Shown here: positions 1 through 57,557 of the stretch, one piece after another
Layout of the letters: each line of letters begins with the position of its first letter
How positions within the stretch are numbered: the stretch's first letter is position 1
Assembly (NCBI GenBank): GCA_050010075.1
Contig: JBEKLS010000001.1
Coordinates: forward strand, 6,563 to 70,562
DNA length: 64,000 nt
DNA from: Candidatus Binatus sp.
Lineage (GTDB): Bacteria; Desulfobacterota; Binatia; Binatales; Binataceae
Direction of reading: 5' to 3'
Program-made: the position numbers and the translations under genes
The notes under the pieces: model-generated
The model's database searches: none
Told to the model about the DNA's origin: nothing
Seen by the model: only the letters and a program-made list of their open reading frames with translations

Positions 1-514
1 CGGCAGCTGATGTTCCATGTAGGCGTCCGAGATGTCGGCGGGCGTGCTGGACTTCACGTTGGGCTCGAAGTGATCGTCGAACTGCGCGTAGTTCTGGATC
101 GCGACGTCGAAGGGCGCGAACGCATGTGCCTGGGGCGGGTTGCCGCCATGCAGCATTACGAACGCGAAGACCGCGACCGCGGCCATCGCAGCCGGCACCC
201 ATACCCGCGCGCGGCGAGCCGAGAACCAGCCGGCGCGATCCGCATGGGCGGCGCGATCGCGCGTGCGGGGCGCGGCGCCCGCAGCGTCGACGGCATCGAG
301 GGCTGCCAGGATCGAGCCGCGCACTTGCGGCGGGATGCGGCGCAGCTCGGCGCGCTCACGCAGCAGCGTCTTGACCGCGCGCTCCTCGGCGAAGCGCGCG
401 CGGCAGTTGACGCATCCCGCGAGATGCTCCTCGGCGTCGCGCAACTCCGCCGCGCTCAACTCGCCGTCAACCTGCGCTGACAGGTACTGCTCTATGTAAG
501 TGTTGTGATCCACT
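1..514 (-). CDS. Zinc-binding anti-sigma factor (ZAS-like, H-x3-C-x2-C), single transmembrane helix; C-terminus runs off the window
   Basis: I translated the minus strand by hand from the GTG at 514-512: VDHNTYIEQYLSAQVDGELSAAELRDAEEHLAGCVNCRARFAEERAVKTLLRERAELRRIPPQVRGSILAALDAV...VWVPAAMAAVAVFAFVML.... It contains an HLAGCVNC zinc motif followed by a hydrophobic transmembrane segment. It lies directly downstream (80 bp) of the ECF sigma gene on the same strand. It is absent from the ORF table because of the non-ATG start and truncation at the window edge; the plus-strand ORF 10..480 is its antisense shadow. Confidence 0.6.
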
Positions 515-593
515 AGTTATCGCTGTTATGCCCGGCTCACTTCTCTCTCGCATGACGCCAATCCGTCGATTAGGGCCGCATGCTTCTCCGGCG

Positions 594-1172
594 TCAAGTG
601 CGTATTATTCCGCGCTCCCTGGCAAAGCCGGCTAACGCATCACGCAGCATCGCACGCCCACGTGATACCCGTGATTTTACCGTACCGATCGGTACGTTCA
701 GAACCCCCGAAACCTCCTGGTAACTCAGTTCCTCGACGTCCACCAGGAGGAGCGCTTCACGAAATTCCTCCGACAATGCCGCCAGCGCGGTCTCTACCTC
801 ACCCTCCATCCCTCGTCCCGACAGCAGCGCTTCGGGATTCGATCCGGCCGGATCGACGCGCAGGCTTTCGCCCTCGACCTTGCGATCGAACTCCTCGGCC
901 GATGAGGCCGGCTGTTCGCGCGAGGCCTTGCGATAGCCGTTGCGAAAATTGTTGAACAGGATGGTGAGCATCCACGCGCGGCAGTTGGTGCCGCTCTCGA
1001 ACTGATGAAAGAAGCGGTACGCTCTGAGCACCGTCTCCTGCAGCAGGTCGTTGGCGTCGTCGGGATTGCGGGCGAGGCGAATCGCCATCGTGTAGAGAGC
1101 GTCGAGATGAGGCAAAGCCTCGTCTTCGAAGCGCTTGCGCCGGTCCGCGCCGGTGCCGCCTTTGTCCGCCAT
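594..1172 (-). CDS. ECF (sigma-70 group 4) RNA polymerase sigma factor
   Basis: 192 aa. The region 2 and region 4 signatures are present (LLQETVLRAYRFF, NCRAWMLTILFNNFRNGYRK, C-terminal HTH VPIGTVKSRVSRGRAMLR). The anti-sigma gene is immediately downstream. Confidence 0.85.
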   Translation of the reverse strand: MADKGGTGADRRKRFEDEALPHLDALYTMAIRLARNPDDANDLLQETVLRAYRFFHQFESGTNCRAWMLTILFNNFRNGYRKASREQPASSAEEFDRKVEGESLRVDPAGSNPEALLSGRGMEGEVETALAALSEEFREALLLVDVEELSYQEVSGVLNVPIGTVKSRVSRGRAMLRDALAGFARERGIIRT

Positions 1173-1325
1173 ATGCTGATTTCAGAAACATAGCATCCCT
1201 TATCATTGAAATCTTCCATAAGCCCGAAATGTTCCCACTAGCGCTCATTAGATCGGGACGTTTACACTGTAATTTGTTATCTGCGCCCGCTCAGGCGGCG
1301 CTACATTAGCTGAGGAGATACAACT

Positions 1326-1604
1326 ATGAGCAAAACAAAACTCAGTGGCGCACTGCTCGCGACAGCGGTAGCACTGATGTTCGCGGGCAACGCCGTGTAC
1401 GCGGCTGACAGTTCCGATGCGGCGGCGTCGCAGGTGAAGTGCGTCGGCGGCAACGCGTGCAAGGGGCAGAGCGCGTGCCAGAGCGCGGACAGCAGCTGCA
1501 AGGGCCAGAATGCGTGCAAGGGCAAGGGCTACGTGATGACGCCGTCGGCCAAGGAATGTGTGGCGGCTGGCGGGAAGCCTGCTAGCGCCCCGAAGCCCGA
1601 CTAG
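1326..1604 (+). CDS. bufA: DUF2282-type bufferin-like RiPP precursor peptide (signal peptide plus six Cys)
   Basis: 92 aa. The N-terminal signal peptide is MSKTKLSGALLATAVALMFAGNAVYA. The core has six Cys in repeating C-x-G-x-N-A-C-K-G-Q motifs (KCVGGNACKGQSACQSADSSCKGQNACKGKGY). There is a GGAG ribosome-binding site 8 nt upstream, and the gene sits immediately upstream of a DUF692 enzyme. Confidence 0.65.
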   Translation: MSKTKLSGALLATAVALMFAGNAVYAADSSDAAASQVKCVGGNACKGQSACQSADSSCKGQNACKGKGYVMTPSAKECVAAGGKPASAPKPD

Positions 1605-1616
1605 GCGATCGCTCTG

Positions 1617-2492
1617 ATGAAGCGTTCCGACTTCCCGATGCTCGGTTACGGCGTCGGGCTTAGACGCCAGCACTACAGCCACGTCCTCGAAGCGCGGCCG
1701 AAGGTCGATTGGTTCGAGGTCATCTCGGAAAATTTCATGGTCGCCGGCGGACGCGCGCTCGAGGTGCTCGAAGGCGTGCGCGCCGACTATCCAATCGCGA
1801 TGCATGGCGTGTCGATGTCGATTGGATCGACCGACCCGCTGAATCGCGAATACCTGCGGCAACTGCGCGACCTCGCGCGGCGCTTCGATCCGGCCTGGAT
1901 TTCGGATCACCTGTGCTGGACCGGTGTAGGCGGACGCAATCTGCATGACCTGCTGCCGCTTCCATATACCGACGAGGCAATTCGGCACGTCGTCGCGCGC
2001 ATCCGCAATGTGCAGGACGTACTCGAGCGCCCGCTACTCATCGAGAACGTGTCGAGCTACATGGCGTTCGCGGATTCGACGATGAGCGAGTGGGAATTTA
2101 TTTCGGCGATCGCGGACGAAGCCGACTGCGGCATCCTGCTCGACATCAACAACATCTACGTGAGCGCGTTCAACCACCACTTCGACGCCAATTCGTACAT
2201 CGACGCGGTGCCGGCCGAGCGCGTCGTGCAGTACCATCTAGCCGGTCACAGCGATCACGGCACGTATCTGCTCGATACGCACGACCATCCGGTGCGCGAC
2301 GAAGTGTGGGCGCTCTACGGGCGGGCGGCGCGGCGCTTCGGTGCGGTCTCGGCGCTGGTCGAATGGGACGACAACATCCCGGAGTTCGCGGAGTTGGCGC
2401 AGACCGCCGATCGCGCGCGTGCGATTTTCGAATCACATGGAAGAACTCAAAAATCTTCAAAGCCTGCTCTATCGGCTGATCACCGCGCCTAG
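1617..2492 (+). CDS. bufB: DUF692 / MNIO family enzyme (MbnB-like TIM-barrel iron enzyme) that modifies the precursor
   Basis: 291 aa. The N-terminal LGYGVGLRRQHY...VDWFEVISENF and the HxD/ExH-rich core are typical of DUF692/MbnB proteins. It lies 12 bp after the precursor gene. Confidence 0.8.
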   Translation: MKRSDFPMLGYGVGLRRQHYSHVLEARPKVDWFEVISENFMVAGGRALEVLEGVRADYPIAMHGVSMSIGSTDPLNREYLRQLRDLARRFDPAWISDHLCWTGVGGRNLHDLLPLPYTDEAIRHVVARIRNVQDVLERPLLIENVSSYMAFADSTMSEWEFISAIADEADCGILLDINNIYVSAFNHHFDANSYIDAVPAERVVQYHLAGHSDHGTYLLDTHDHPVRDEVWALYGRAARRFGAVSALVEWDDNIPEFAELAQTADRARAIFESHGRTQKSSKPALSADHRA

Positions 2493-3243
2493 CGGCGTCG
2501 GCGAGGGACTCGTGGCAGAGCGCGAACTGAGCGCGCGCGGCCTCGACGCGATCGTGCTCGGCGACGAGCGCCTGTCGGCCGCCGCTCGCGTCGATATCTA
2601 CGCGAACATGTATTTCTACCGGCTGCTCGACGTGCTGAAAGAAGATTTCCCCGCGACGCTCGCGGTGCTCGGCGCCGACAATTTTCACAACCTCGTCACC
2701 GGTTACATCCTCGAACATCCGCCGACCGAACCGTCGCTCTACTACTGCGGCCGCTATCTCGCGGACTATTTACGCGACCATCCGCTCAGCGAGAACGCGC
2801 CGTTTATCATGGACCTTGCGCGGCTCGAACGCGCCAGCGTCGAGGTTTTTCATGCCGCCGACGCCGCCGTGCTCGAACCTGACGCGCTGCGCGCGGTTGC
2901 GCCTGCCGATTGGCCCGCGATGAAGCTCACGGTTCATCCGTCGGCACAGATACTCGCGCTGGATTGGCGAGTCTCGGAGCTGCTGCGCGCGGTCGAAGAG
3001 GATCGTCCGTGGCAGCCCGCGGCTCGGGGCGCAGTCAAAGTCCTCGTGTGGCGCTGCAATGCGCGCGTCTTCCACCGCGAGCTCGAACGCGCCGAAGCCG
3101 ACGCGCTCGAGGTCGCTTTGCGCGGCGCGGCGTTCGCTGAAATCTGCGACGTCGTCGCGGCTAGCGCCGGCGGTCACGATGCTGTCGCTGCCATGAACCG
3201 AATCCTCGCTCGATGGCTCGCCGACCGGCTGCTCACACGCTGA
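2437..3243 (+). CDS. bufC: DUF2063-family partner protein of the MNIO enzyme
   Basis: The in-frame ATG at 2437 (MEELKNLQSLLYRLITAPSG...) lies inside the longer table ORF 2341..3243 and overlaps the end of the DUF692 gene by 56 bp. The size (about 268 aa) and its position right after DUF692 match the conserved DUF692-DUF2063 gene pair. Confidence 0.55.
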   Translation: MEELKNLQSLLYRLITAPSGVGEGLVAERELSARGLDAIVLGDERLSAAARVDIYANMYFYRLLDVLKEDFPATLAVLGADNFHNLVTGYILEHPPTEPSLYYCGRYLADYLRDHPLSENAPFIMDLARLERASVEVFHAADAAVLEPDALRAVAPADWPAMKLTVHPSAQILALDWRVSELLRAVEEDRPWQPAARGAVKVLVWRCNARVFHRELERAEADALEVALRGAAFAEICDVVAASAGGHDAVAAMNRILARWLADRLLTR

Positions 3244-3301: not shown

Positions 3302-4429
3302 ATGGCGGCAAATCCAAAACTAACCGGCGACACTGTCAGCATCGAACGGCCCACCAGCCGCCAACAATTGGAGGAGTTCGCGCGCCTGCCGTTTCAGGTT
3401 TACGGCGCGCGCGACGCGTGGTGGCCGCCCGACGTGCAGAACGAGATCGATTTGCTGTCGCGCCGCAGCCTGCTCTCCGGCTACCTCGAAGTCACTCCCT
3501 TCTGCGCGCGCCGCGCCGGGCGCGTGGTCGCGCGCGTCACCGCGGTTATCAATCGCCGCTATATCGAACATTGGAACGAGCAGCTTGGACAGTTGATTCA
3601 GTTCGAGGCGCTCGAAGGCGAGGACGCCGCCGTCGCCGCGATGCTCGAAGAGGCGGTGCAGTCGATTCGCGAGCGCGGGATGCACGCGGTTCGCAGCGGC
3701 TTCGCGGCGTTCCTCGACTATCCCTACGCGATCGACAACTACGATTCATTGCCGTCGTTCCTGCTGCGCGGCAATCCCGCGTCGTACCATCGCTACTTCA
3801 AGGACGCCGGCTTCGTCACCGAGAAGGGACAGGTCGATTACACCGCGCCGCTCACGCCCGAGATCCTCGCGCGCTATCGACGAATGGCCGAGGCGGCCAG
3901 CGTTGCCGGCATCACGATTCAAAGCTGGCGCGAGTACGGCTACCTGGCGGCGATTGACGCGTGGACCGACGTGACCAACGCGGCGTTCGATCGCCATTGG
4001 GGATGGAATCCGGTGACGCGCGCCGAAGTGCGCCCGATGCTCACCTCGCTGTGGGAAACGCCGGTCGCCGACCTCTCGATGCTGGCGATCATCGACGGTG
4101 AAAGCGTTGGCGCCGTCTTCTCTGTGCCCGATCTCAGCACGGCGCTTGCTCGCGTGCGCAAAGGAATCCGGCTTGATCCCGAGCGCGGCGGCGGTACGCG
4201 CGGTGCGCTGATAAATATCGGCGTCGTCGAGCGCGCGCGTGGTCGCGGAGTCGCGCTGGCGATGGCGGCGCGATCGTTCATGGCGATGTCGCGGCGCCGG
4301 ATGCGCTTTGCCGGCTACACTCTCGTGCTCGACGACAACTGGGCGTCGCGTCGCACCGCGCTCAGCCTCGGCGCGCGCGTCACCGGCAACTTCATCACCT
4401 ACCGCCGCGATCTCGCCGGACGGGAGTAA
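3302..4429 (+). CDS. GNAT-fold acyltransferase-like protein (375 aa), function unknown
   Basis: The C-terminal half has a GNAT motif-A-like segment (GALINIGVVERARGRGVALAMAARSF). It is clearly coding, with no strong shadow competitor. It sits directly after the MNIO operon. Confidence 0.5.
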   Translation: MAANPKLTGDTVSIERPTSRQQLEEFARLPFQVYGARDAWWPPDVQNEIDLLSRRSLLSGYLEVTPFCARRAGRVVARVTAVINRRYIEHWNEQLGQLIQFEALEGEDAAVAAMLEEAVQSIRERGMHAVRSGFAAFLDYPYAIDNYDSLPSFLLRGNPASYHRYFKDAGFVTEKGQVDYTAPLTPEILARYRRMAEAASVAGITIQSWREYGYLAAIDAWTDVTNAAFDRHWGWNPVTRAEVRPMLTSLWETPVADLSMLAIIDGESVGAVFSVPDLSTALARVRKGIRLDPERGGGTRGALINIGVVERARGRGVALAMAARSFMAMSRRRMRFAGYTLVLDDNWASRRTALSLGARVTGNFITYRRDLAGRE

Positions 4430-4482: not shown

Positions 4483-5781
4483 ATGGAAAAACCGAGCGGA
4501 CGCCTCGTCCCGCCCCTGTTGTCCGTCATCGCAGTCTTTTTCGCGCTGATATTTTCTTTCACTCCTGCTCGCGCCCAGGTCAAAGCGGGCGACGTGATCA
4601 CCGCAAAGAACGCCGAGCAGGTTCGCGCGCTCGTGAGCCCGGGCACTTTCATCGCGGTCTCGCGCGGCATGCAGATAAACATCGTCGCACCCAGCCGCGT
4701 CGATTGGCCGCCGCCCTTCCAGGATGCGACCGAGAAGTACTCCGGCCAGGTGCGCCTCGGCCCCGACCATCGCGACCTGCTCGGATACGTCGCCGGCCAG
4801 CCGTTCCCAATTCTCGATCCCAACGATCCCGACGTCGCGACCAAGATCATGTGGAACCAGTACTTCAAGCCGATCGCGAGCGACGATTTCGATTTGCGCT
4901 TTTTCGAATGCCAGGTGGCGAAGCAAAATCCCGGCGCCGATCAGTCGCTTATGCAGCTGACCGAGATCGGGCATCTCGCCGGCTATTCCGACATCGGGCG
5001 CACCGAGGTCGAGCCGATGCCCGCCGATCCCGATTTCCAGACCACCGCTATCTGGCAGCGCTCCGCCGCGTATCCCACGCTCGCGCCGTCGGAAGATCGC
5101 GGCAGCGGCGCGATTCGCTATCGCTACTGGGATGCGAACCACGGCGATGATGCGTGGGCGTTCCTGGCCGGTGAGCGGCGCGTGCGGCGGGTCAGCGAAG
5201 TGATAATGAGTTCGTCGCCGGGCCTTTCGACCTGGGACGCCGATCACGCCGGCGGATTTGGCGCCAAGCCGCAGGAATACAATTTCAAATATCTCGGCGA
5301 CAAGAACATGCTCGGCTGCGCGCACGCGCGCAACGCGCCCGCGGAACCATGCAAGACTGACGGCGGCGCGACCTCATGCGGCGACGATTGGGAAATGCGT
5401 CATCTGTACGTCGTCGAAGTTACGCCGCGCCCCGAAAGAATCGCGGGCGTGCTGCAGTCGAAGACCATCGTGTACGTTGACAGCGAGGGATGGTTCAATC
5501 CGTACGTCGACAGCTACGACCAGAAGGGCGAGCTGTGGAAGGCGCAGATCTACCTCAACACTTACCGCGATCGCCCGGTGCCTGACGCGAGGGTCGCCGT
5601 CTATCCATTCAAGCGCGAGTTCATCACCGCCGCCTCGAGCATCGACGTCCAGTCCGGCGTCTCGACGACCTGCTATCTACCTGGCGCCGACACACCAGAG
5701 CGAGAATGCTGGTACATAAACATGGGCGCAGTGGACAGAAGCTTCTTCACGACCGAGGCGCTGACGAAGGCCGGGCATTAG
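4483..5781 (+). CDS. Secreted DUF1329-like protein (LolA-like outer-membrane lipoprotein-carrier fold family)
   Basis: 432 aa. The N-terminal signal peptide is LLSVIAVFFALIFSFTPARAQ. The size and the W/Y-rich composition fit the DUF1329 family; this is weak recall-based similarity. Confidence 0.4.
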   Translation: MEKPSGRLVPPLLSVIAVFFALIFSFTPARAQVKAGDVITAKNAEQVRALVSPGTFIAVSRGMQINIVAPSRVDWPPPFQDATEKYSGQVRLGPDHRDLLGYVAGQPFPILDPNDPDVATKIMWNQYFKPIASDDFDLRFFECQVAKQNPGADQSLMQLTEIGHLAGYSDIGRTEVEPMPADPDFQTTAIWQRSAAYPTLAPSEDRGSGAIRYRYWDANHGDDAWAFLAGERRVRRVSEVIMSSSPGLSTWDADHAGGFGAKPQEYNFKYLGDKNMLGCAHARNAPAEPCKTDGGATSCGDDWEMRHLYVVEVTPRPERIAGVLQSKTIVYVDSEGWFNPYVDSYDQKGELWKAQIYLNTYRDRPVPDARVAVYPFKREFITAASSIDVQSGVSTTCYLPGADTPERECWYINMGAVDRSFFTTEALTKAGH

Positions 5782-6078: not shown

Positions 6079-7392
6079 CTACTTAATCGCGAGCGCGTTC
6101 GGCGGCGAGCCCACTCCTCCCGGAATATTCAGCGGCGCGGACGTCAGAAAGAAATCGTAATTCCCATCCGCCGCGCAATCGTCCGCCAGCCCTTCGAGAT
6201 TCCACATCTCGCCTATCGGCATTCCGAAGAACGCGAGCATGTGGAAGTGCAGAAACTCGTTCTCGTTGCCCGGCCCCTTGGGCAACGCCTCGAGCGCCGG
6301 TGAATCCGACGCGACTGCCGCGAGGTGATTGTCCCATAGCCATCTCGCCGTGCGATCGCTGCCTTCGATTCCCGGCGTCACCGTCTCCTTCGCCAACTCC
6401 GCCTTAATCTCATCGCTCGCCGACAGGTAGAACTTCGTCCATCCGATGCGAATCAGCAGAATGTCGCCCGCTTGCAGCGTGACCGCTTCCTCTTCCAGCG
6501 CCGCCTGCACGTCTTCAAGCGGAATCGACTCGGCCTTGGTAAAGGTGATCGACTTGCCGATGCGATCGTAGTACCGCGCCACGTCAGCCAGCACTCCACG
6601 CCCCGCGATTCCGCGCCGCGCTAGGTTGTCGATGCCAAGCCGCATGCCGCCGCGACCGGTGATCTCCTTGTCGGGAATCCCGTTGTAGGCTCCGTGCACG
6701 GGATGCTTCACGTGCGCGAGCGCGTCCCATTGCGAAGACGCCTGCGGATAGAAGTTGTCGAGGTAGTCGTCGAGCACGAATTCCAGGTTCGGGAAAATCT
6801 TGACGGTGTGCGAATGCTTGCCGCGCGTGAACAGCGGCGGGTCGGGAATGTTGATCGGCAGATTCAGCGCGAAAACTTTGCCCGATCGAATCGACGACGC
6901 CGCATCGACCACGCGCGCCGGCGTCAGCAGGTTGATGGTGCCGACTTCGTCGTCGTCGCCGAACACGCCCCACGCCGCGCCCGCCGGCGCGCCTGCCCGC
7001 ACCGGCAGTTCGTCGTAGCTGGGAATCTCCGGCGAAAGCGCAACAGCGTCTTTCATTGCGCGCGTCGCTTTGGCCGCGACCTCGCCGACTTTGCGCACCG
7101 CGGCGCGCTGCATCCTGCCGGCCGCGCTCTCGATATCGACCGCCGCACGCGTCGCCGCGGTTACGATATCGGCAACGGTATCCGCTATCGGCTTGGAGGA
7201 TTTTTTCGGCGCAGGCCGCATCGCGGTCTTGGCCGCAAGTGGGCGCTTTACGGCTTTCGCCGCCGGCTTTTTGGCCTTGACCGCTTTGGGAGCGGCTTTG
7301 CGGGTCTTGGGCGCCGCTTTGATTACTTTCTTTTTGGACTTTGCCACTGACGGATCCTCCTGGATTGCTCGAGCGCGACCGCATCTTCTCAT
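6079..7392 (-). CDS. Cyclase-family (kynurenine formamidase-like) protein fused to a lysine/alanine/proline-rich histone-H1-like N-terminal tail
   Basis: 437 aa. The N-terminal roughly 110 aa are KAAPK/AKK repeats (KKKVIKAAPKTRKAAPKAVKAKKPAAKAVKRPLAAK). The C-terminal roughly 300 aa have putative-cyclase-family motifs (HVKHPVHGAYNGIPD, GIDNLARRGIAGRGVLADV, LLIRIGW). Confidence 0.7.
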   Translation of the reverse strand: MRRCGRARAIQEDPSVAKSKKKVIKAAPKTRKAAPKAVKAKKPAAKAVKRPLAAKTAMRPAPKKSSKPIADTVADIVTAATRAAVDIESAAGRMQRAAVRKVGEVAAKATRAMKDAVALSPEIPSYDELPVRAGAPAGAAWGVFGDDDEVGTINLLTPARVVDAASSIRSGKVFALNLPINIPDPPLFTRGKHSHTVKIFPNLEFVLDDYLDNFYPQASSQWDALAHVKHPVHGAYNGIPDKEITGRGGMRLGIDNLARRGIAGRGVLADVARYYDRIGKSITFTKAESIPLEDVQAALEEEAVTLQAGDILLIRIGWTKFYLSASDEIKAELAKETVTPGIEGSDRTARWLWDNHLAAVASDSPALEALPKGPGNENEFLHFHMLAFFGMPIGEMWNLEGLADDCAADGNYDFFLTSAPLNIPGGVGSPPNALAIK

Positions 7393-35437: not shown

Positions 35438-36271
35438 TTATGCCGGCAATTGCAGTAGCCGCTGCGGCCGCACCACCATCTCGAAGATATTCAACTCTAT
35501 CGGCTGCGTCACTGCGAACAGCACCGCACGCGCGACGTCGTCAGCCGACGCCAGGAACAACTTGCCCGCCGCCGCGATTTGATCGAGCACGTCGGGCGCC
35601 ACTGGCTTGCCGGGCTCGATGTCCGCTTTGATCCCGAGCGAACTCGCGATGCCCTGGACGAACTCAGGCGGAAAGTTGCGCGCGAAGTTGGTGGCGACCG
35701 CGCCCGGTATGATATTCACCACGCGAATCTTGTCGTTCTCCAGTTCCTTGCGCAGCGTCGTCGCGATCGAATTCACCGCCCACTTGGTCGAGCCGTACAC
35801 CCCCGACGCTTCGGTGCGGCCGGCAGTCGAGGAGATATTTACGACGTGCCCGGCGGCGCCGCAAGCACGCATCGCGCGAATCGCCGCCTGCGATCCGACC
35901 AGCAGCGCGAGCACATTGACCTCGAGCATCTCGCGCCAGCGCTCGGGATCGCCGTCGATTATCGAGCTCGGGAAACTGAGGCCCGCGTTGTTCACCATGA
36001 TGTCGAGCCGCCCTGTCGCCTTCACTGCCTTGTCGATCAGACCCTGCACCTGCCGCACGTCGCGCGCATCGAGCACCACCGCGGTCGCGTGCCCGCCCGC
36101 CTGCTCGATTGTCCGCACGCCTTCCTTGAGTGCGGACTCGGTCCGTCCCGCGATGAACACATGCGCGCCCGCCTCGCCGAGTCTGATCGCGATTGCGCGG
36201 CCGATTCCGCTCGACGCGCCGGTGACGATCGCGGTGCGCCCCTTGAGTGATTGAGTGTGATTGTCTGCCAT
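35438..36271 (-). CDS. SDR-family oxidoreductase
   Basis: IVTGASSGIGRAIA; NISSTAG...YGSTKWAV. Confidence 0.85.
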   Translation of the reverse strand: MADNHTQSLKGRTAIVTGASSGIGRAIAIRLGEAGAHVFIAGRTESALKEGVRTIEQAGGHATAVVLDARDVRQVQGLIDKAVKATGRLDIMVNNAGLSFPSSIIDGDPERWREMLEVNVLALLVGSQAAIRAMRACGAAGHVVNISSTAGRTEASGVYGSTKWAVNSIATTLRKELENDKIRVVNIIPGAVATNFARNFPPEFVQGIASSLGIKADIEPGKPVAPDVLDQIAAAGKLFLASADDVARAVLFAVTQPIELNIFEMVVRPQRLLQLPA

Positions 36272-39104: not shown

Positions 39105-41975
39105 CTACCGCCCGCCGGGCGCGAGGTTGAGCACTTCCGCCAGATGCATCGGGCGGCGCCGGGGGCAGAAATGACGAATCTGCGAGCGGCATGAGAAGCC
39201 GTCGGCCACGATGATCGCGTCGGGCGGCGCCTTTTCGATCGATGGAATCAGAACTCGCGCGCCGATCGCTTTCGACACCTCGAAATGCGCGCGGTCGTAG
39301 CCGAACGCGCCCGCCATCCCGCAGCATCCGGCGTCGAGCACTTCGAGTTCCGCCCCCGCCGCGCGCGAGAGCAACGCAATCTCGCCGCCGATGCCGGCGA
39401 TCGCCTTCTGATGGCAATGACCCTGGACAATAGTACGGCGGCGCAGCTCAGGCGGCGTGAAGTCCGATGCTTCGCGCGTGAGGAACTCGTCGAGCAGGAA
39501 CGCGCTCGACGCAATCGCCTTCGCGCGGGGATCTTCTGAGAAAAGCGACGGCAACTCGTCGCGAAACGTGAGGATACAACTCGGCTCGAGCCCGACGATC
39601 GGAATTCCGACCGCGACGAAGGGATCGAGCGCGTCCATCACGTCGCGCAGCCGCGCCTTGGCGCGGTCGAGCATCCCCTGGTCGTAGAGCGGGCGGCCGC
39701 AGCAGAGCTGATCGCGCGGAACGATCACGCGAAATCCGGCGCGCTCGAGCACTTCGACCGCGGCGACGCCGACCTGCGGTTCGAAGAAGTTGTTGAAGGT
39801 GTCCGGAAACAGCGCCACTTCACGCATGCTGGCCCTGGGAGCGGTTCTGCGCTCGAACCATGCGCGAAAAGTCTGTCGCGCAAAACGCGGCAGCTCGCGA
39901 TCCGGATAAATCGTGAGCGCCTTTTTCGCGACGCCGCCGATGATCGGCGCGTGCGCCAACGCATTAACCAGCGACGGTGCATATGATGCGAGCTGCGCAA
40001 CTTCATTCAGCCGGCCGAAGAACGCCGACGACAGCGGACGCCGATGACTCCGATAGTAGTTCGAGAAAAATTCCGCGCGATACGCCGCCATATCCACCGA
40101 CGACGGGCACTCGCCCTTGCATCCTTTGCACGACAGGCACAAATCGAGCGCGTCTTTCAGGGCACGGTCGGCGAAACCCTCGGGCAGCAGGTCGGTGGTC
40201 AGCGCCTCGAACAGAATTCGCGCGCGCCCGCGCGTCGAATGGATTTCCTCGCGCGTCGCCATGTACGACGGGCACATCGTGCCCGCCTCGGTCTTGCGGC
40301 ATTTTCCGATCCCGACACATTTGAGCGCGGCGCCTGCGAGCCCGCCCTCGCTGCTGAAATCAAAATGCGTGGCGATTTCGCGCGGCTGGTAGTTCGCGCC
40401 CAGCTTCAGACGCGAGTCGAGCGGATGCGCGTCGACGATCACGCCGGCGTTCATCATCGAGCCCGGATCGAAAATGCGCTTGAAGTCGCGAAACGCGTCT
40501 ATCAGGTCCGGCTGGAACATCATCGGCAGCAACTCGGAGCGCGCCACCCCGTCGCCATGCTCGCCCGACAGCGAACCACCGAGGCTGGTAACGAGTTCGC
40601 CGATCTCGAGCATCGCCGCGCGAAACGTGGCGACGCCCGGCGCGCTCGCCAAATCGAAATTGATGCGCGCGTGAACGCATCCTTCGCCGAAGTGTCCGTA
40701 GTAGGTCGCGACCTTGAGGTTGCGCTGCGCGAGGATGCGATCGAAGCCGCGCAGAAACGCGCCGAGCTTTGCCGGCGGCACCGCCGCGTCTTCGGCGCCC
40801 GGCCAGAAGCGCGGGCGGCCCGGGATGTACGCGCTCGAGCCGAGTCCCGACTCGCGAATATTCCAGACCGCGGCCTGCTCGCGCGCATCTGCGAGATACG
40901 CTGCTCCCATGCATTCGCGTAGCGCGCGCGCATTCGCGATCACGCGTTCGGCACGCTCGCGCGCCTCGTCGCGCGACGAGCCCCCGAGCTCGACCAGCAG
41001 AAACGCGCGTCCGGCGGGCAGAAAGCGCACACCGGGCATGTTTTTGATGCGCGCGAGGTCGGGCAGATTCTGGTCGAAGCCTTCGAGCGCGTCCGGGCGA
41101 TGCTCGAGCAACCACGGAGTTTGATCCGCGGCGACAAAGACGTCGTCGAATCCGAGCACGGCCAGTGCGACCTCGTTCGGGCGCGGCACTGCCCGGATCG
41201 TGGCGCGCAGAACGACGGCGAGCGTGCCCTCGGAGCCAACGATTGCGCGCGCAAGATTGAAGCCGCCCTCTGGCATCAGCTCGTCGAGATTGTAGCCCGA
41301 CACGCGCCGCGGCAACTTCGGGAAATGAGCGCGCACTGAATCCGCGCAGCGGTCGCGCAGCTCGCGGACGCGCGCGTAAAGATCGCCTTCGCGCCCGCCG
41401 CGCCCGATCGCCGTGCCGAGCTGCGCGTCGTCGATCGAGCCGGTCAGCGAAAGCTGCGTGCCGTCGTACAGGATGACCTCGAGCGCCTCGACGTTGTCGA
41501 CCGTCTTGCCGTGCGCCGCCGAATGCGCGCCACATGAGTTGTTGCCGATCATCCCGCCGATCGTGCATCGATCTTTGGTCGACGGATCCGGCGCGAAGAA
41601 CAGGCCATGCGGCGCGAGGGCGGTGTTGAGATGGCTCTGGACGACGCCGGGCTCTACCTGGGCGGAGTGTGAGCCGGGGTCGATCGCGATGACGCGGTTC
41701 ATGTACTTCGAGAAATCGAGCACGAGCGCCGCGTTGCACGCCTGCCCCGCGAGGCTGGTGCCGCCGCCGCGCGCGAGTAGCGGCATCGAGTTTTCGCGCG
41801 CGACCGACAGCGCGGCGATCACGTCGCCCTCGTGCCGCGGAATCACCACGCCCACCGGCACCTGGCGATAGTTCGACGCGTCGGTGGCGTAGGCCGCGCG
41901 CGTGCCCGCGTCGAAGCGCACTTCACCTTCGATTATGGTGCGCAGGTGAGATTCGAGCGCTGCAACCGAGGCCAT
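39105..41975 (-). CDS. FAD-linked oxidase fused to a (Fe-S) CCG domain (YdiJ / GlcD-GlcF-like 2-hydroxyacid dehydrogenase)
   Basis: 956 aa. The N-terminal FAD_binding_4 domain has ARGGGTSLAGQ. The C-terminus has 4Fe-4S dicluster and CCG motifs (CLSCKGCKGECP). Confidence 0.85.
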   Translation of the reverse strand: MASVAALESHLRTIIEGEVRFDAGTRAAYATDASNYRQVPVGVVIPRHEGDVIAALSVARENSMPLLARGGGTSLAGQACNAALVLDFSKYMNRVIAIDPGSHSAQVEPGVVQSHLNTALAPHGLFFAPDPSTKDRCTIGGMIGNNSCGAHSAAHGKTVDNVEALEVILYDGTQLSLTGSIDDAQLGTAIGRGGREGDLYARVRELRDRCADSVRAHFPKLPRRVSGYNLDELMPEGGFNLARAIVGSEGTLAVVLRATIRAVPRPNEVALAVLGFDDVFVAADQTPWLLEHRPDALEGFDQNLPDLARIKNMPGVRFLPAGRAFLLVELGGSSRDEARERAERVIANARALRECMGAAYLADAREQAAVWNIRESGLGSSAYIPGRPRFWPGAEDAAVPPAKLGAFLRGFDRILAQRNLKVATYYGHFGEGCVHARINFDLASAPGVATFRAAMLEIGELVTSLGGSLSGEHGDGVARSELLPMMFQPDLIDAFRDFKRIFDPGSMMNAGVIVDAHPLDSRLKLGANYQPREIATHFDFSSEGGLAGAALKCVGIGKCRKTEAGTMCPSYMATREEIHSTRGRARILFEALTTDLLPEGFADRALKDALDLCLSCKGCKGECPSSVDMAAYRAEFFSNYYRSHRRPLSSAFFGRLNEVAQLASYAPSLVNALAHAPIIGGVAKKALTIYPDRELPRFARQTFRAWFERRTAPRASMREVALFPDTFNNFFEPQVGVAAVEVLERAGFRVIVPRDQLCCGRPLYDQGMLDRAKARLRDVMDALDPFVAVGIPIVGLEPSCILTFRDELPSLFSEDPRAKAIASSAFLLDEFLTREASDFTPPELRRRTIVQGHCHQKAIAGIGGEIALLSRAAGAELEVLDAGCCGMAGAFGYDRAHFEVSKAIGARVLIPSIEKAPPDAIIVADGFSCRSQIRHFCPRRRPMHLAEVLNLAPGGR

Positions 41976-53646: not shown

Positions 53647-54432
53647 ATGCGTCGAGATCGCCGTAGCCGTTTTAGCACCGGGTTAGGTGCCGGGCTGATG
53701 CTGATAAGCGCCCTGGTGCTGATGGCGTCGGGCTCCGTGCTGGCGCAAACGGCGGCAGGTTCGTTCCAGTCCGTAAGCGGCCAGGTACAAATTCAGCGCG
53801 GCGGCGGCGCGACGATCGGAGCGGCGGCCGGCGTCGGCGTTAACACCGGCGATCGAATCGTCACCGGCCCGACCGGCCATGCTGTCATCCTGCTCAACGA
53901 CCAGAGCCGCCTCGAACTCGGTCCCGCCAGCACTATCACGCTCGACCAGTTCACAATCACCGGCGGCGCCAACACGACGCGCGTCAGCTTGTTTTCCGGC
54001 GTGCTGCGATCGCTTGTAAACAGCGCGTCAGGCGGCATGCGCGCCGATTACCAGGTACACACTCCCAACGCGGTCGCGGCAGTTCGCGGAACCCGATTCG
54101 ATACTGCTTACAGTGAGAATGTAATCAGACCCGGCTACCAGGGATGCGAGCGATATACCGACGTCTCGGTATATCAGGGCACCGTAAACCTGGCGCCGAT
54201 CGGAACTCCCAACGCGGGTCAGGACGTCAGCGCGGGTTACGAGGCGACGCTGCCCTGCGACAAACCCCCGACGGCTCCCGGGCCGCTGGCGATGACCGGT
54301 GCAGTGTCGCTCGAAAGCGCCAGCGCTGGCGGCGCCCAGTTCACGGGAGCGGCGCCGTCATCGGGCGGCGCACCGGTGCCGGCATGTCCGGTCTGCACGA
54401 ACATGACGACCGTCGGTACGTCGGGGCGATAG
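53647..54432 (+). CDS. Secreted FecR-domain protein
   Basis: Signal peptide. The FecR-like pattern is VNTGDRIVTGPTGHAVILLNDQSRLELGPASTITL...AAVRGTRF. Confidence 0.6.
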   Translation: MRRDRRSRFSTGLGAGLMLISALVLMASGSVLAQTAAGSFQSVSGQVQIQRGGGATIGAAAGVGVNTGDRIVTGPTGHAVILLNDQSRLELGPASTITLDQFTITGGANTTRVSLFSGVLRSLVNSASGGMRADYQVHTPNAVAAVRGTRFDTAYSENVIRPGYQGCERYTDVSVYQGTVNLAPIGTPNAGQDVSAGYEATLPCDKPPTAPGPLAMTGAVSLESASAGGAQFTGAAPSSGGAPVPACPVCTNMTTVGTSGR

Positions 54433-54447
54433 GGGAGGAGGTGAAAC

Positions 54448-55218
54448 GTGGCGACCAAACGAAGATTCCGGGTTAGTATCGCGGTCGTGCTCGCGTTGGC
54501 GCTGGGCGCATTCGCCAGAGCGCCGGCTGCAAACGCGCAGTGGTTTGACGACAACTATCCGGGATTTTTCTCGCTGCAGACTCCCGGACTCTTCCAGACC
54601 ACGCTGTTCGGCGGCGGTTTCGTCAGCGACAAATATGGCGTCCTGCAGGAGGGCGTACAGGCCGAGCAAAGCGTCACGCCGTATCTCGGCGTCTTCGGCC
54701 GCGCCACCGGCTATCAACTGTGGATTGGCAATGGCTTCGAGAGCCCGCTGGCGCCGGGCAGCGGCAGTTTCCCGCGCCTGAACTTCGGCCGCTTCCAGGG
54801 CGGCGCGGATTTCACGCTGTTCCCGGGCACTCATCTGTACGTCTCTGGCGGCCACGACGTGGCGGACAGCGACGCCAGCGTGATCGAAGGCGACTTCTCG
54901 AGCTGGCTGCTATTGCACAGCCAGCATCCGCTCAACGGCTCCTTCAGCTCGATCCATGATTTTCAGAATGGCGTCACCAGCAGCGAGATCGACGTCAATG
55001 CGATCCTGCTCTCGACCGAAAAGTTCATGGTCATGGGCGGCATCGGCGGCGCGATGTACTTCGGCGGCTTCCTGACCGAAGGGCAGGGCCAGGGCGGTCC
55101 CGACCTCGGCTTCTACTACCGTCCGTGGCAGCTCGGCGTCAGCGCGCAGGCTGGCTACGGCAACGCGCATCAGTATGGCCAGATCAGCATGTACAAGCAG
55201 CTAAGCTGGTTCGAGTAG
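54448..55218 (+). CDS. Secreted protein of unknown function (possible outer-membrane beta-barrel)
   Basis: The signal peptide is VVLALALGAFARAPAANAQ. It is Gly/aromatic-rich with an alternating pattern and ends in ...LSWFE. Confidence 0.4.
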   Translation: MATKRRFRVSIAVVLALALGAFARAPAANAQWFDDNYPGFFSLQTPGLFQTTLFGGGFVSDKYGVLQEGVQAEQSVTPYLGVFGRATGYQLWIGNGFESPLAPGSGSFPRLNFGRFQGGADFTLFPGTHLYVSGGHDVADSDASVIEGDFSSWLLLHSQHPLNGSFSSIHDFQNGVTSSEIDVNAILLSTEKFMVMGGIGGAMYFGGFLTEGQGQGGPDLGFYYRPWQLGVSAQAGYGNAHQYGQISMYKQLSWFE

Positions 55219-55328
55219 TCGCGACGCTTCACGCGCATTAGCAGACAATCCGCGGAGGACGTGTTCCGCGAACGCCCGCGCATGGTTAGCGGAGCCCGCG
55301 CCGGCGAGCTAAGCTCGAATCGCTGACG

Positions 55329-57557
55329 ATGGCGAGCGCAAGAGCGTCAATCCTGGCTGCGAGATTTTCCTGGCGCACGTTCCTGTTCGGGATCGTGCTG
55401 CTCGGCTTGTGGTTCGGCTTCCACAACCGCTTCCTCAATGCATTCGACCGGATGGATCTGATTGCGTACGACCTGCGCATCAATACCGTCCCGCCGCATC
55501 CGTCCTCGGGCGCGATCGCTATCGCCGCGGTCGACGACAAGAGCATCGCGAAACTTGGGCAATGGCCATGGCCGCGGGCGGTGCTGGCGGAGCTGGTCAA
55601 TGCGCTCAAGGACTACCAGGTCAAGGTCGTCGGCTTCGATGCGATTTTCAGCGAAGAGGACAAGAGCGACGTAACGCGCGGGCAAACCAGCGAGAAGCTC
55701 GCGCAGCTTGGCCTTACGGGGCAGTCGATTCGCCAGGTGCTGGGTCCCAGCAACGACGAAGCCTTCGCGGCGTCGATGAAAGCGCAAGGTCTGACCGTGC
55801 TCGGCTACGCGTTCCAGAGCCATCATTTCCAGAGTCACTTCGCGATTGACAAAATGTCGGGGTTCCAGGAAAAAATTCGACCGCCCGGGCCGCTCGGTTA
55901 CAACATCGTTCGCCAGGCGCCGGGCCCGACGCATGAATTGATCAAGGCGCTCGCCTATCAACCGCCGTACGCGATTCTCGACGACGCCGCGCACTCGAGC
56001 GGATACTTCGACGTCGACGCGGACGAGGACGGCGTAATCCGCACCGAGATGACGGTCATCCGCTTCGACGGCCGCTACTGCGTGCCGCTGTTCCTCGCGA
56101 TCGTCGATGCGTACGCGGACGGTGCGACGATGATCCTGGGACTCGACTCGTTCGGGGTGGCGGGCGTGTCGGTCGCCGGCGTGGGAATACCGGTGGGTGA
56201 CGACGGCCGCATGCTGGTGAATTTTCGACGCGGCCCCGATCCGTTCCCGCACTATTCCATCTCGGACATCATCAACCACAAGATCGCGCCCGACAAGCTG
56301 GCCGGCAAGATCGTCCTGGTCGGCGCAACTGCCCACGGCCTCGGCGACCGCGGCGTGACTCCTGTGGACGGCGACATGGCGCGCGTCGATATCCACGCCC
56401 ACGCAATCGACAACGTGCTGCAGGGCGATTTCATCCGGCGCACTTACGAAGGCGCGGTCGAGATTCCGTTCTTCGGCGCGCTGCTGATGGGAGTCGCGAT
56501 ATCGCTTGGGGTCGCGTGGCTGTCGGCGATGGCGTCGGCGGCGCTCGGCGGAATTTTGGTGACCGGCTTTTTGTTTTACGCGCAGCGGCGGCTGCTCGAC
56601 GACGGCCTGGTCGTCGGCGTGGTCTTCCCGCTAATCACCGTGGTCATCATGTACATGTTCCTGGCCGGCTACCGGTACATCACCGAGGGCCGCGAAAAGC
56701 GCTACCTGCGCCTCGCCTTCGAGCACTACCTGAATCCCGACGTCATCACCTCGTTGCTGGAATCGCCCGAGGGTCTGAAGCTGGGTGGCGAGAAGCGTCA
56801 TCTGGCGATCCTCTTCGCCGACATCGTCAGCTTCACCAAGCGCGCCGAGAAGACGGAGCCCGAGGAGCTGCTCGCGCTGCTGAACACCTACATGACCTCG
56901 ATGATCGACGTCATTTTCAAAACTGGCGGCGTCGTCGACAAGCTGATGGGCGACGGCATCATGGCGTTCTGGGGCGCGCCCAACGATCTCGAAAATCCGT
57001 CGCGGGCCGCGATCGATTGCGCGCTCAGCATGCTCGACAATCTGCACGAGCTCCAGAAAAACGATCCGCGCTTCGTCGACCTCGACATCGGCATCGGCAT
57101 CTCGACCGGCGACGTCGTCGTCGGGAACCTCGGCGGCGAAAACCGTTTCGACTACTCCGTCATCGGCGACACCGTGAACTTCGCCTCGCGCCTTGAAGGG
57201 TTGACGCGCCATTTCAAGGTGCATCTGCTCGTCAGCCGCCAGACCTACAGCGAAGCCGGCGGCGGCTACATCGGGCGCGAGCTCGGATTGGTGAAGGTCA
57301 AGGGCAAGCAGCTCTACGTGCCGATAGTCCACGTGGCCGGGCGCGAGAACGACAGCGTCGATCCCTCGTTCTATCGCCATTTCGCCGACGCCCTGACAAT
57401 GATCCGCGCAGGCAACGTCTTTTCCGCGCGCCAGGAGCTCGAACGGCTCGGCGAAACGCGCCCCGACGATACTCCTGTGCAGATTTATCTCGACAAGCTG
57501 TCCGCCGACCCCGAACATCCTCCAACCGAGATGGTTTTCGAGTTCGAGAGCAAGTAA
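55329..57557 (+). CDS. CHASE2-sensor class III adenylyl/guanylyl cyclase
   Basis: There is an N-terminal transmembrane segment plus a periplasmic CHASE2-like domain, then three transmembrane segments. The C-terminal cyclase core is LAILFADIVSFT..., GDGIMAFWGAP, VVVGNLGGENRFDYSVIGDTVNFASRLE. Confidence 0.85.
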   Translation: MASARASILAARFSWRTFLFGIVLLGLWFGFHNRFLNAFDRMDLIAYDLRINTVPPHPSSGAIAIAAVDDKSIAKLGQWPWPRAVLAELVNALKDYQVKVVGFDAIFSEEDKSDVTRGQTSEKLAQLGLTGQSIRQVLGPSNDEAFAASMKAQGLTVLGYAFQSHHFQSHFAIDKMSGFQEKIRPPGPLGYNIVRQAPGPTHELIKALAYQPPYAILDDAAHSSGYFDVDADEDGVIRTEMTVIRFDGRYCVPLFLAIVDAYADGATMILGLDSFGVAGVSVAGVGIPVGDDGRMLVNFRRGPDPFPHYSISDIINHKIAPDKLAGKIVLVGATAHGLGDRGVTPVDGDMARVDIHAHAIDNVLQGDFIRRTYEGAVEIPFFGALLMGVAISLGVAWLSAMASAALGGILVTGFLFYAQRRLLDDGLVVGVVFPLITVVIMYMFLAGYRYITEGREKRYLRLAFEHYLNPDVITSLLESPEGLKLGGEKRHLAILFADIVSFTKRAEKTEPEELLALLNTYMTSMIDVIFKTGGVVDKLMGDGIMAFWGAPNDLENPSRAAIDCALSMLDNLHELQKNDPRFVDLDIGIGISTGDVVVGNLGGENRFDYSVIGDTVNFASRLEGLTRHFKVHLLVSRQTYSEAGGGYIGRELGLVKVKGKQLYVPIVHVAGRENDSVDPSFYRHFADALTMIRAGNVFSARQELERLGETRPDDTPVQIYLDKLSADPEHPPTEMVFEFESK

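Follow-up and report, generated by a model that had tools for sequence, protein, structure and literature searches.

The left end of a 64,000-nucleotide stretch of DNA from a Candidatus Binatus sp. genome (assembly GCA_050010075.1, contig JBEKLS010000001.1, positions 6,563 to 70,562 of the forward strand; hereafter, the window) carries a gene for a small cysteine-rich peptide followed by the genes of two candidate maturation proteins, and a sigma factor gene with its anti-sigma gene diverges from them. The locus raises two questions, namely, which peptide system it encodes and whether the adjacent regulators control it. The obtained data indicate that it is, very probably, a Buf2-type bufferin (“Cys-Lys captophorin”) cluster, bufA2-bufB2-bufC2, of a soil bacterium from the Binataceae (Binatia). 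The only real departure of this cluster from the described Buf2 systems is an adjacent pair consisting of an extracytoplasmic function (ECF) sigma factor and a zinc-associated anti-sigma (ZAS) factor.

Assignment of the Locus to the Buf2 Bufferins

A first-pass annotation of the window had described a bufferin-type locus of a peptide made by the ribosome and modified post-translationally (RiPP), comprising a precursor, an oxidative enzyme dependent on multinuclear non-heme iron (MNIO), and a DUF2063 partner. All of the open reading frames (ORFs) are present at the coordinates it gave, and the Pfam and NCBIfam models, the iron ligands, and the cysteine conservation agree with its description: the small ORF is coding, positions 1617..2492 encode a DUF692 protein, and positions 2437..3243 encode a DUF2063 protein. 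For comparison, 80 related genome loci were used, of which the 11 closest are designated L001–L011. The closest relatives of the BufB protein, with 62–89% identity, belong to metagenome-assembled genomes labelled Candidatus Binatus, Binataceae, Binatia, or “uncultured delta proteobacterium.” In addition, a BufB identical to that of the window is present on four metagenome contigs from the Joint Genome Institute (JGI).

The Buf2 family is already well described and has thousands of members; a 2026 analysis counted 21,424 precursor peptides in the bufferin/captophorin class (PMC13097082). Curated equivalog models exist for BufA2 and BufB, and the standard NCBI annotation would already name the genes of the window. 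A search of the literature for bufferins of Binatia found nothing specific.

The Precursor Peptide

The bufA2 gene (1326..1604, forward strand) encodes a precursor of 92 amino acids (aa), which matched the NCBIfam equivalog model NF050166 (Cu_RiPP_BufA2) over profile positions 2–77 of 79 with 77.2 bits, the cutoff being 60. The first-pass annotation had called it a DUF2282 peptide. It is indeed a bufferin precursor, but its family is BufA2 (BUF_6/12Cys, “Cys-Lys”), as DUF2282 (PF10048) gave no match to BufA in Pfam at E ≤ 0.01; the sole match was a sub-threshold one to DUF7640 (19.5 bits). The gene is preceded by a Shine-Dalgarno sequence, GAGGAG (1312..1317, forward strand), which was read from the sequence and lies 8 nt before the ATG codon. 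A comparison with nine bufA orthologues yielded 178, 141, and 352 substitutions at codon positions 1, 2, and 3, respectively, i.e., an excess at the third position, and independent contigs also carry gene calls for the small ORF.

The N-terminus of BufA had been described as a Sec signal peptide, and a heuristic inspection revealed the corresponding features: an n-region MSKTK, hydrophobic residues 6–24 (Kyte-Doolittle value 2.08), and a likely cleavage site AVYA|AD. The predicted signal peptide occupies approximately 1326..1403 and is followed by a 66-aa core with six cysteines. Precursor ORFs were taken from 66 of the 80 loci for alignment with that of the window; the Sec-type N-terminal layout is common to the resulting 67 orthologues. 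The six cysteines of the window precursor (positions 39, 45, 51, 58, 64, and 78) fall in columns that are 94–100% Cys in this alignment, which spans many phyla. The count of six cysteines given earlier stands, while the C-x-G-x-N-A-C-K-G unit in which they had been said to be repeated was counted at two places, residues 39–47 and 58–66.

In the window precursor, Lys comes directly after C45, C58, and C64, and Gln after C51. Among the orthologues, Lys follows the central cysteines in 44–65 of 67 sequences, whereas it does not follow the outer two. In the Buf2 peptide of Caulobacter, each of the four central cysteines is lighter by 4 Da and a disulfide joins the outer two (PMC11626156), and a “Cys-Lys” precursor group with an NACKG motif was described in the captophorin paper (PMC13097082). 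The Cys-Lys pattern of the window precursor agrees with both the modified central cysteines of Caulobacter and the captophorin Cys-Lys group.

Precursors of other loci, namely L024, L049, L060, L072, and L079 (Methylophilaceae/Methylotenera); L048 and L067; and L025, L027, L070, and L073, vary widely. Some contain additional C-K-T/G-A repeats and have 10–13 Cys, in others a single ORF holds duplicated bufferin domains, and Acidobacteriota have long forms with multiple repeats; these are the “12-Cys” and still larger variants of Buf2.

The Maturase and Its Partner

The bufB2 gene (1617..2492, forward strand) starts 12 nt past the stop codon of bufA and encodes an MNIO (DUF692) maturase of 291 aa. 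The protein matched PF05114 (MbnB_TglH_ChrH) with 380 bits and the NCBIfam model NF050167 (MNIO_BufB, “MNIO family bufferin maturase”) with 389 bits, which is above the cutoff of 310. The models for HvfB, ApyH, MbnB, and ChrH all scored far below their cutoffs. The nine iron ligands known from the crystal structure of MbnB (H54, H90, E133, D163, N166, H192, D208, H210, and E239; PMC9060507) align to H63, H98, E143, D176, N179, H207, D220, H222, and E249 of BufB. When the MNIO columns were compared across 80 orthologues, all nine ligands were invariant in 80 of 80. The Glu ligand is directly followed by W-D251-D252, in which D251 is invariant and position 252 is Asp in 67 of 80 orthologues. The Cys-Lys MNIOs have Asp in place of Phe beside the catalytic Asp (PMC13097082), and D251-D252, the pair of catalytic Asp and specificity Asp, is typical of these enzymes.

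The first 56 nt of the bufC2 gene (2437..3243, forward strand; 268 aa) lie within the end of bufB, and the JGI gene calls give it the same start codon. Its product, which had been described as DUF2063-like, matched PF09836/DUF2063 with 60.4 bits at a cutoff of 27.2. It was also similar over its full length to the HvfC model (profile positions 23–234 of 237), the score of 59 bits being below the cutoff of 142. A search of the PDB with the single BufC sequence gave no match; only a profile of 16 BufC orthologues reached the structure 3DEE (NGO1945), covering its N- and C-terminal domains with E = 3.6e-4. Judging from these similarities, BufC appears to be a partner protein of the DUF2063 plus RiPP recognition element (RRE) type, encoded directly after the MNIO.

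Two further observations concern bufC. Its ATG codon, located in the overlap 2437..2492, has no obvious Shine-Dalgarno sequence, and similar overlaps are present in close relatives, a sign of translational coupling. In L011 (8795..9203), bufC seems, by tblastn, to be absent between bufB and the acetyltransferase (GNAT) gene discussed below; gene loss or a degraded gene is possible.

The Adjacent Sigma and Anti-Sigma Factors

The first-pass annotation had also noted a divergent ECF sigma factor and a membrane anti-sigma factor with an H-x3-C-x2-C motif, and both are present. The sigma factor gene (594..1172, reverse strand; 192 aa) is divergent from bufA and lies 80 nt upstream of the anti-sigma gene. 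Its product matched Sigma70_r2 with 44 bits and Sigma70_r4_2 with 56 bits in Pfam, and TIGR02937 (sigma70-ECF) with 68 bits at a cutoff of 42.9; among the specific models, SigH_actino was best and remained below its cutoff. Only the 5′ part of the anti-sigma gene (1..513, reverse strand), corresponding to residues 1–171 of 282, lies in the window, as the gene runs past the left edge. The full-length protein of 282 aa was seen on L081–L083, contigs with a BufB identical to that of the window. The anti-sigma factor contains a zf-HC2 domain (39 bits) with the motif H30-x3-C34-x2-C37, the complete set of zinc ligands (H/C3, H30, C34, and C37), and one transmembrane segment at residues 104–124. Its periplasmic domain (approximately residues 130–282) is RseB/MucB-like, and three Cys (C212, C252, and C262) and one His are invariant in it. 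In Pfam, this domain has no family; zf-HC2 was the only match of the protein, which is not NrsF (PF06532). With zf-HC2 as the only match and a single transmembrane segment, the anti-sigma factor belongs to the ZAS type and not to NrsF.

The pair adjoins bufA in seven of the 11 closest loci (L001, L003, L004, L005, L007, L009, and L011), on L081–L083, and on three contigs found via anti-sigma homologues with 59–63% identity. In the loci that have the pair, there is never a gene between the sigma gene and bufA. It had been stated earlier that bufferin loci frequently carry an ECF/anti-sigma pair. This is true of Buf1 clusters with NrsF; a 2025 survey reported sigma/NrsF genes in Buf1 clusters and not in Buf2 clusters (PMC12452194). 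The ECF/ZAS pair encoded in cis, with its RseB-like, cysteine-bearing sensor domain fused to the anti-sigma factor, is a modest regulatory variant that is possibly specific to Binataceae.

A different arrangement was observed in L008 (6749..10193), where a Buf2 cluster has another divergent ECF sigma factor (25% identical) and a DoxX gene after bufC; in the precursor of this locus, the fourth conserved Cys is replaced (TSAGPGKNSCK). The presence of an unrelated ECF sigma factor beside Buf2 in L008 indicates that cis ECF genes occur sporadically near Buf2 clusters. In more distant Binataceae (L086, 6939..7637; L087, 7174..7680), a DsbA/thioredoxin-like gene is located directly after the anti-sigma gene and before purF. 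It could relate to the disulfides of the bufferin or of the periplasmic domain of the anti-sigma factor; in the lineage of the window (L081), the gene is absent.

Promoter Motifs

A GGAAC-N18-ATTT motif was found upstream of the sigma gene in all eight Binataceae loci compared (in the window, 1209..1235, reverse strand). It ends 32 nt before the start codon in seven of these loci and 34 nt before it in L011, and it looks like the promoter of an autoregulated ECF sigma factor. The motif pattern had two matches in the window versus 0.72 expected. The second match, GGAAC-N18-RTTT at 35554..35580, was rejected as a chance occurrence because it lies inside a gene of the short-chain dehydrogenase/reductase (SDR) type.

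A near-identical motif, GGAAC-N17/18-(G/A)TTT, is located upstream of bufA in four of the eight loci: GGAAC-N18-GTTTAGAC in L001 and L003, GGAAC-N17-GTTTAGGG in L009, and GGAAC-N18-ATTTGACT in L011. By our estimate, the chance expectation of a motif of the bufA type is about 0.005 per intergenic region. In the window and in L004, the intergenic region is shorter and only the −10-like box, GTTTACAC/GTTTAGAC, is kept; the box of the window, GTTTACAC, is conserved and lies at 1260..1267 on the forward strand. A scan for the sigma-70 consensus upstream of bufA in the window gave nothing. Because bufA of the window is not preceded by a GGAAC −35 box, control by the sigma factor is supported in the relatives, and for the window genome we only infer it. 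The same applies to the earlier description of the peptide as metal-stress-inducible under ECF control, which likewise stands as an inference.

Comparison with Known Systems

The closest known system is the buf2 operon of Caulobacter vibrioides (CCNA_02999-03001; BufA2/BufB2/BufC2), which is the founding example of the Buf2, or BUF_6/12Cys, bufferins (PMC11626156). The window locus shares with it the three-gene A-B-C organization without DoxX, the six-Cys precursor with a Sec signal, and the combination of an MNIO with a DUF2063/RRE partner; moreover, the precursor and the enzyme of the window pass the cutoffs of the NCBIfam BufA2 and BufB equivalogs. ECF dependence would be a further shared feature: in Caulobacter, it was demonstrated by experiment that Buf2 is induced by Cu and depends on the ECF sigma factor SigF (PMC11626156), and in the window such dependence is suggested by analogy. 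The two systems differ in their regulators. In Caulobacter, SigF and NrsF, an anti-sigma factor with six transmembrane segments, are encoded elsewhere, near buf1, and control buf2 in trans (PMC11626156), whereas in the window a different ECF sigma factor is encoded beside bufA together with a single-pass ZAS anti-sigma factor that has an RseB/MucB-like periplasmic domain. In addition, Caulobacter belongs to the Pseudomonadota, while the host of the window locus is from an uncultured lineage of Binatia.

The first-pass annotation had regarded the lack of a DoxX gene as a departure from the described loci. This is not the case, as the founding buf2 operon of Caulobacter also has no bufD/DoxX (PMC11626156) and just 8 of the 80 related loci carry a DoxX-like gene. 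In the window, no DoxX-like sequence was found (best tblastn E = 4.9).

As far as can be judged from its genes, the window locus resembles the Buf1 systems (DUF2282 precursors; bufABCD with DoxX, often with SigF/NrsF) in the enzyme pair, and it would share with them the thiooxazole chemistry, periplasmic copper buffering, and a frequent ECF association. Unlike in Buf1, the precursor has no DUF2282 and contains six Cys instead of four, DoxX is missing, and the anti-sigma factor is not NrsF. The Lys-Cys captophorins (fontiphorin, oxazolin/HvfA, and gonophorin, with EGKCG repeats) represent another related type, in which an MNIO and a DUF2063/RRE protein place 5-thiooxazoles on the cysteines of a secreted Cu-binding peptide (PMC13097082). 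The window differs from them in the Cys-Lys motif (NACKG/SSCKG) in place of Lys-Cys-Gly and in having Asp, not Phe, after the catalytic Asp; the scores of both the HvfB model (276 versus a cutoff of 360) and the HvfC model (59 versus 142) were below the cutoffs.

With methanobactin (MbnA/MbnB/MbnC), the locus shares the MNIO fold and the nine iron ligands and, putatively, a reaction in which Cys of a copper-binding RiPP is rearranged oxidatively. However, the MbnB model TIGR04159 scored 70.6 bits against a cutoff of 325, the partner is DUF2063 and not MbnC, and the precursor has a Sec signal peptide instead of a cleaved leader. The bufferin product would stay in the periplasm, unlike methanobactin, which is a secreted chalkophore taken up via MbnT. 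As for the regulators, the periplasmic domain of the window anti-sigma factor can be compared with ZAS proteins of the RsiW/RsrA type and with the RseA-RseB and MucA-MucB modules, since it resembles RseB/MucB. In the known modules, RseB is a separate protein, whereas in the window the RseB-like domain forms one chain with the anti-sigma factor; it also differs from the known ZAS/RseB modules in its three invariant Cys plus His and in having no Pfam family.

Proposed Mechanism and Role

By homology to the Buf2 system of Caulobacter, the following mechanism can be proposed for the window locus, in which the catalytic apparatus is present and the chemistry is the predicted part. BufA would be produced with a Sec signal peptide. 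In the cytoplasm, BufB, held on its substrate by BufC (DUF2063/RRE), would oxidize C45, C51, C58, and C64 to 5-thiooxazoles. The modified BufA would then be exported by Sec and the signal peptide cut after AVYA, after which the outer cysteines, C39 and C78, may form a disulfide. The resulting folded peptide of approximately 66 residues would sequester excess copper in the periplasm. A stress of the envelope, metal, or redox type probably turns the cluster on through the ECF sigma factor and the ZAS anti-sigma factor; in this scheme, a signal from the envelope, a thiol, or a metal would inactivate the anti-sigma factor and so release expression. That copper is the inducer is suggested purely by the example of Caulobacter.

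Several observations weigh against this proposal. In the window and in L004, there is no GGAAC −35 box upstream of bufA at the right spacing (spacings of 15–20 nt were scanned in the window). L006 has kept bufABC, and a gene for an ABC permease replaces the sigma pair there. The periplasmic domain of the anti-sigma factor resembles the RseB/MucB sensors of envelope stress and not a known metal sensor. Furthermore, the pur operon and rpsF-priB-rpsR flank a slot whose synteny is family-wide, with purF and rpsF as anchors, and the whole block lies in it, so the regulator could owe its place to common descent instead of function; the tblastx synteny map, which is noisy in GC-rich DNA, was used only for these two anchors. 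No copper- or metal-resistance genes were found near the cluster when the rest of the window was inspected. Finally, since C51 precedes Gln and not Lys, it is uncertain whether all four central cysteines are modified.

The most serious alternative concerns the regulator: the ECF/ZAS pair might be an independent regulator of the envelope- or redox-stress response that has only synteny in common with the cluster in Binataceae and exerts no control over bufA in this genome, the identity of bufABC being correct. The missing −35 boxes, the conserved chromosomal slot, the retention of bufABC without the pair in L006, and the RseB/MucB-like sensory domain all fit such a regulator, as does the general absence of sigma genes from Buf2 clusters in the survey (PMC12452194). 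On the other hand, the sigma-type motif GGAAC-N17/18-RTTT also precedes bufA in L001, L003, L009, and L011, the sigma gene and bufA are never separated in the loci that bear the pair, an unrelated ECF sigma gene lies divergently beside Buf2 in L008, and buf2 of Caulobacter is itself under ECF control. We regard an independent regulator as possible but rather doubtful. The more specific proposal, that the cis-encoded ECF sigma factor and single-pass ZAS anti-sigma factor form a dedicated Buf2 sensor that reads periplasmic copper, thiol-oxidative stress, or bufferin loading, can be put forward only as a speculation.

A second alternative accepts a modified bufferin and assigns it a role other than copper buffering in Binataceae, such as the handling of another soft metal or protection against redox or sulfur stress. 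The lack of copper genes nearby and the redox-type ZAS regulator with conserved periplasmic cysteines are in line with this, and the authors of the survey suggested functions with other metals for some bufferins (PMC12452194). However, every bufferin or captophorin tested so far (Buf1 and Buf2 of Caulobacter, fontiphorin, oxazolin, and gonophorin) binds copper and protects against it (PMC11626156, PMC13097082), which makes a non-copper role improbable.

Neighboring Genes and Overlapping Reading Frames

A gene for a 375-aa protein (3302..4429, forward strand) lies 58 bp downstream of bufC, and it is followed by a gene for a secreted DUF1329 (LolA-like) protein of 432 aa (4483..5781, forward strand; DUF1329, 150 bits in Pfam) and by a gene for a putative cyclase (PF04199) of 437 aa with a Lys/Ala-rich N-terminus (6079..7392, reverse strand). 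The first-pass annotation had listed a GNAT-like and a DUF1329-like protein as the next genes of the locus. These descriptions are right; nevertheless, the genes are neighbors only and not members of the cluster. The 375-aa protein has no Pfam or NCBIfam match of its own. An AlphaFold2 model (pLDDT 79) showed a tandem GNAT, and a Foldseek search with this model retrieved 2WPW, 7Q3A, 3TT2, and MshD (including the clavulanate-pathway tandem GNAT and MAB_4324) with E-values from 1e-13 to 1e-10 and a probability of 1.0. Homologues of the protein pass PF00583 in the C-terminal half, and the copy of the window, represented by its 98%-identical relative P0001, is sub-threshold (17.2 versus 20.7 bits). 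The protein is highly conserved (68–98% identity), with only Binataceae among the matches listed.

The tandem GNAT could, in principle, tailor the bufferin by acylating its precursor at the N-terminus or at Lys, and the cluster would then be an extended one. Its gene is on the same strand as bufC and is found downstream of it in nine of the 11 closest loci (with a gap of 58 bp to 3.3 kb). There is no convincing terminator in between, as the fold after bufC was no better than that of shuffled sequence (z = −0.2). The fold of the protein is like that of the clavulanate-pathway and MshD enzymes, and the protein is cytoplasmic, as are the other maturation steps. However, bufC and the GNAT gene are separated by an opposite-strand membrane-protein gene in L003 and by three genes of secreted proteins in L004; L008 and L010 carry bufABC without the GNAT gene, which is also missing from all non-Binataceae loci. 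The position of the gene is explained by the family-wide synteny, and no GNAT has been reported in bufferin clusters in the literature. We thus consider a tailoring function very improbable, and the GNAT gene is treated here as a conserved neighbor. The DUF1329 and cyclase genes were rejected as cluster members as well, since they are not conserved beside the buf cluster in relatives.

Long ORFs on the reverse strand (1248..1988 and 1301..1525) overlap bufA, as is common in DNA of 63% GC. The reading in which the true product is antisense and the small ORF is spurious has a negligible probability, being excluded by the third-position excess of substitutions and the strong Shine-Dalgarno sequence, in agreement with the match above the cutoff of the curated model, the conservation of Cys across phyla, and the gene calls on independent contigs.

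The remaining part of the window is ordinary chromosome and includes rpsF-priB-rpsR-rplI, cell-envelope and sugar-nucleotide genes, and genes for PBP1, SecF, Hsp70, and others. At 53647..57557 (forward strand), a gene for a FecR-domain protein, an unannotated ORF of 256 aa, and a gene for a CHASE2-adenylate/guanylate cyclase stand in a row and may form a signaling module. At 39105..41975 (reverse strand), a 956-aa fusion protein is encoded that combines FAD-linked oxidase, 4Fe-4S dicluster, and CCG cysteine-rich domains (GlcD/GlpC-like).

Significance of the Locus

The window locus leaves the known chemistry and function of bufferins unchanged. With it, Binatia, a soil lineage that is abundant but uncultured, joins the range of a recently defined and very widespread class of copper-buffering peptides. 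The locus also provides an example of a Buf2 cluster next to which an ECF/ZAS regulator of its own is encoded; this arrangement was absent for Buf2 in the 2025 survey (PMC12452194) and may help in finding out how such clusters are switched on outside the Pseudomonadota. If the pair is indeed a dedicated sensor, the locus would represent a self-contained sense-and-buffer module, mechanistically unlike SigF-NrsF, in a phylum (Binatota) without cultured members.

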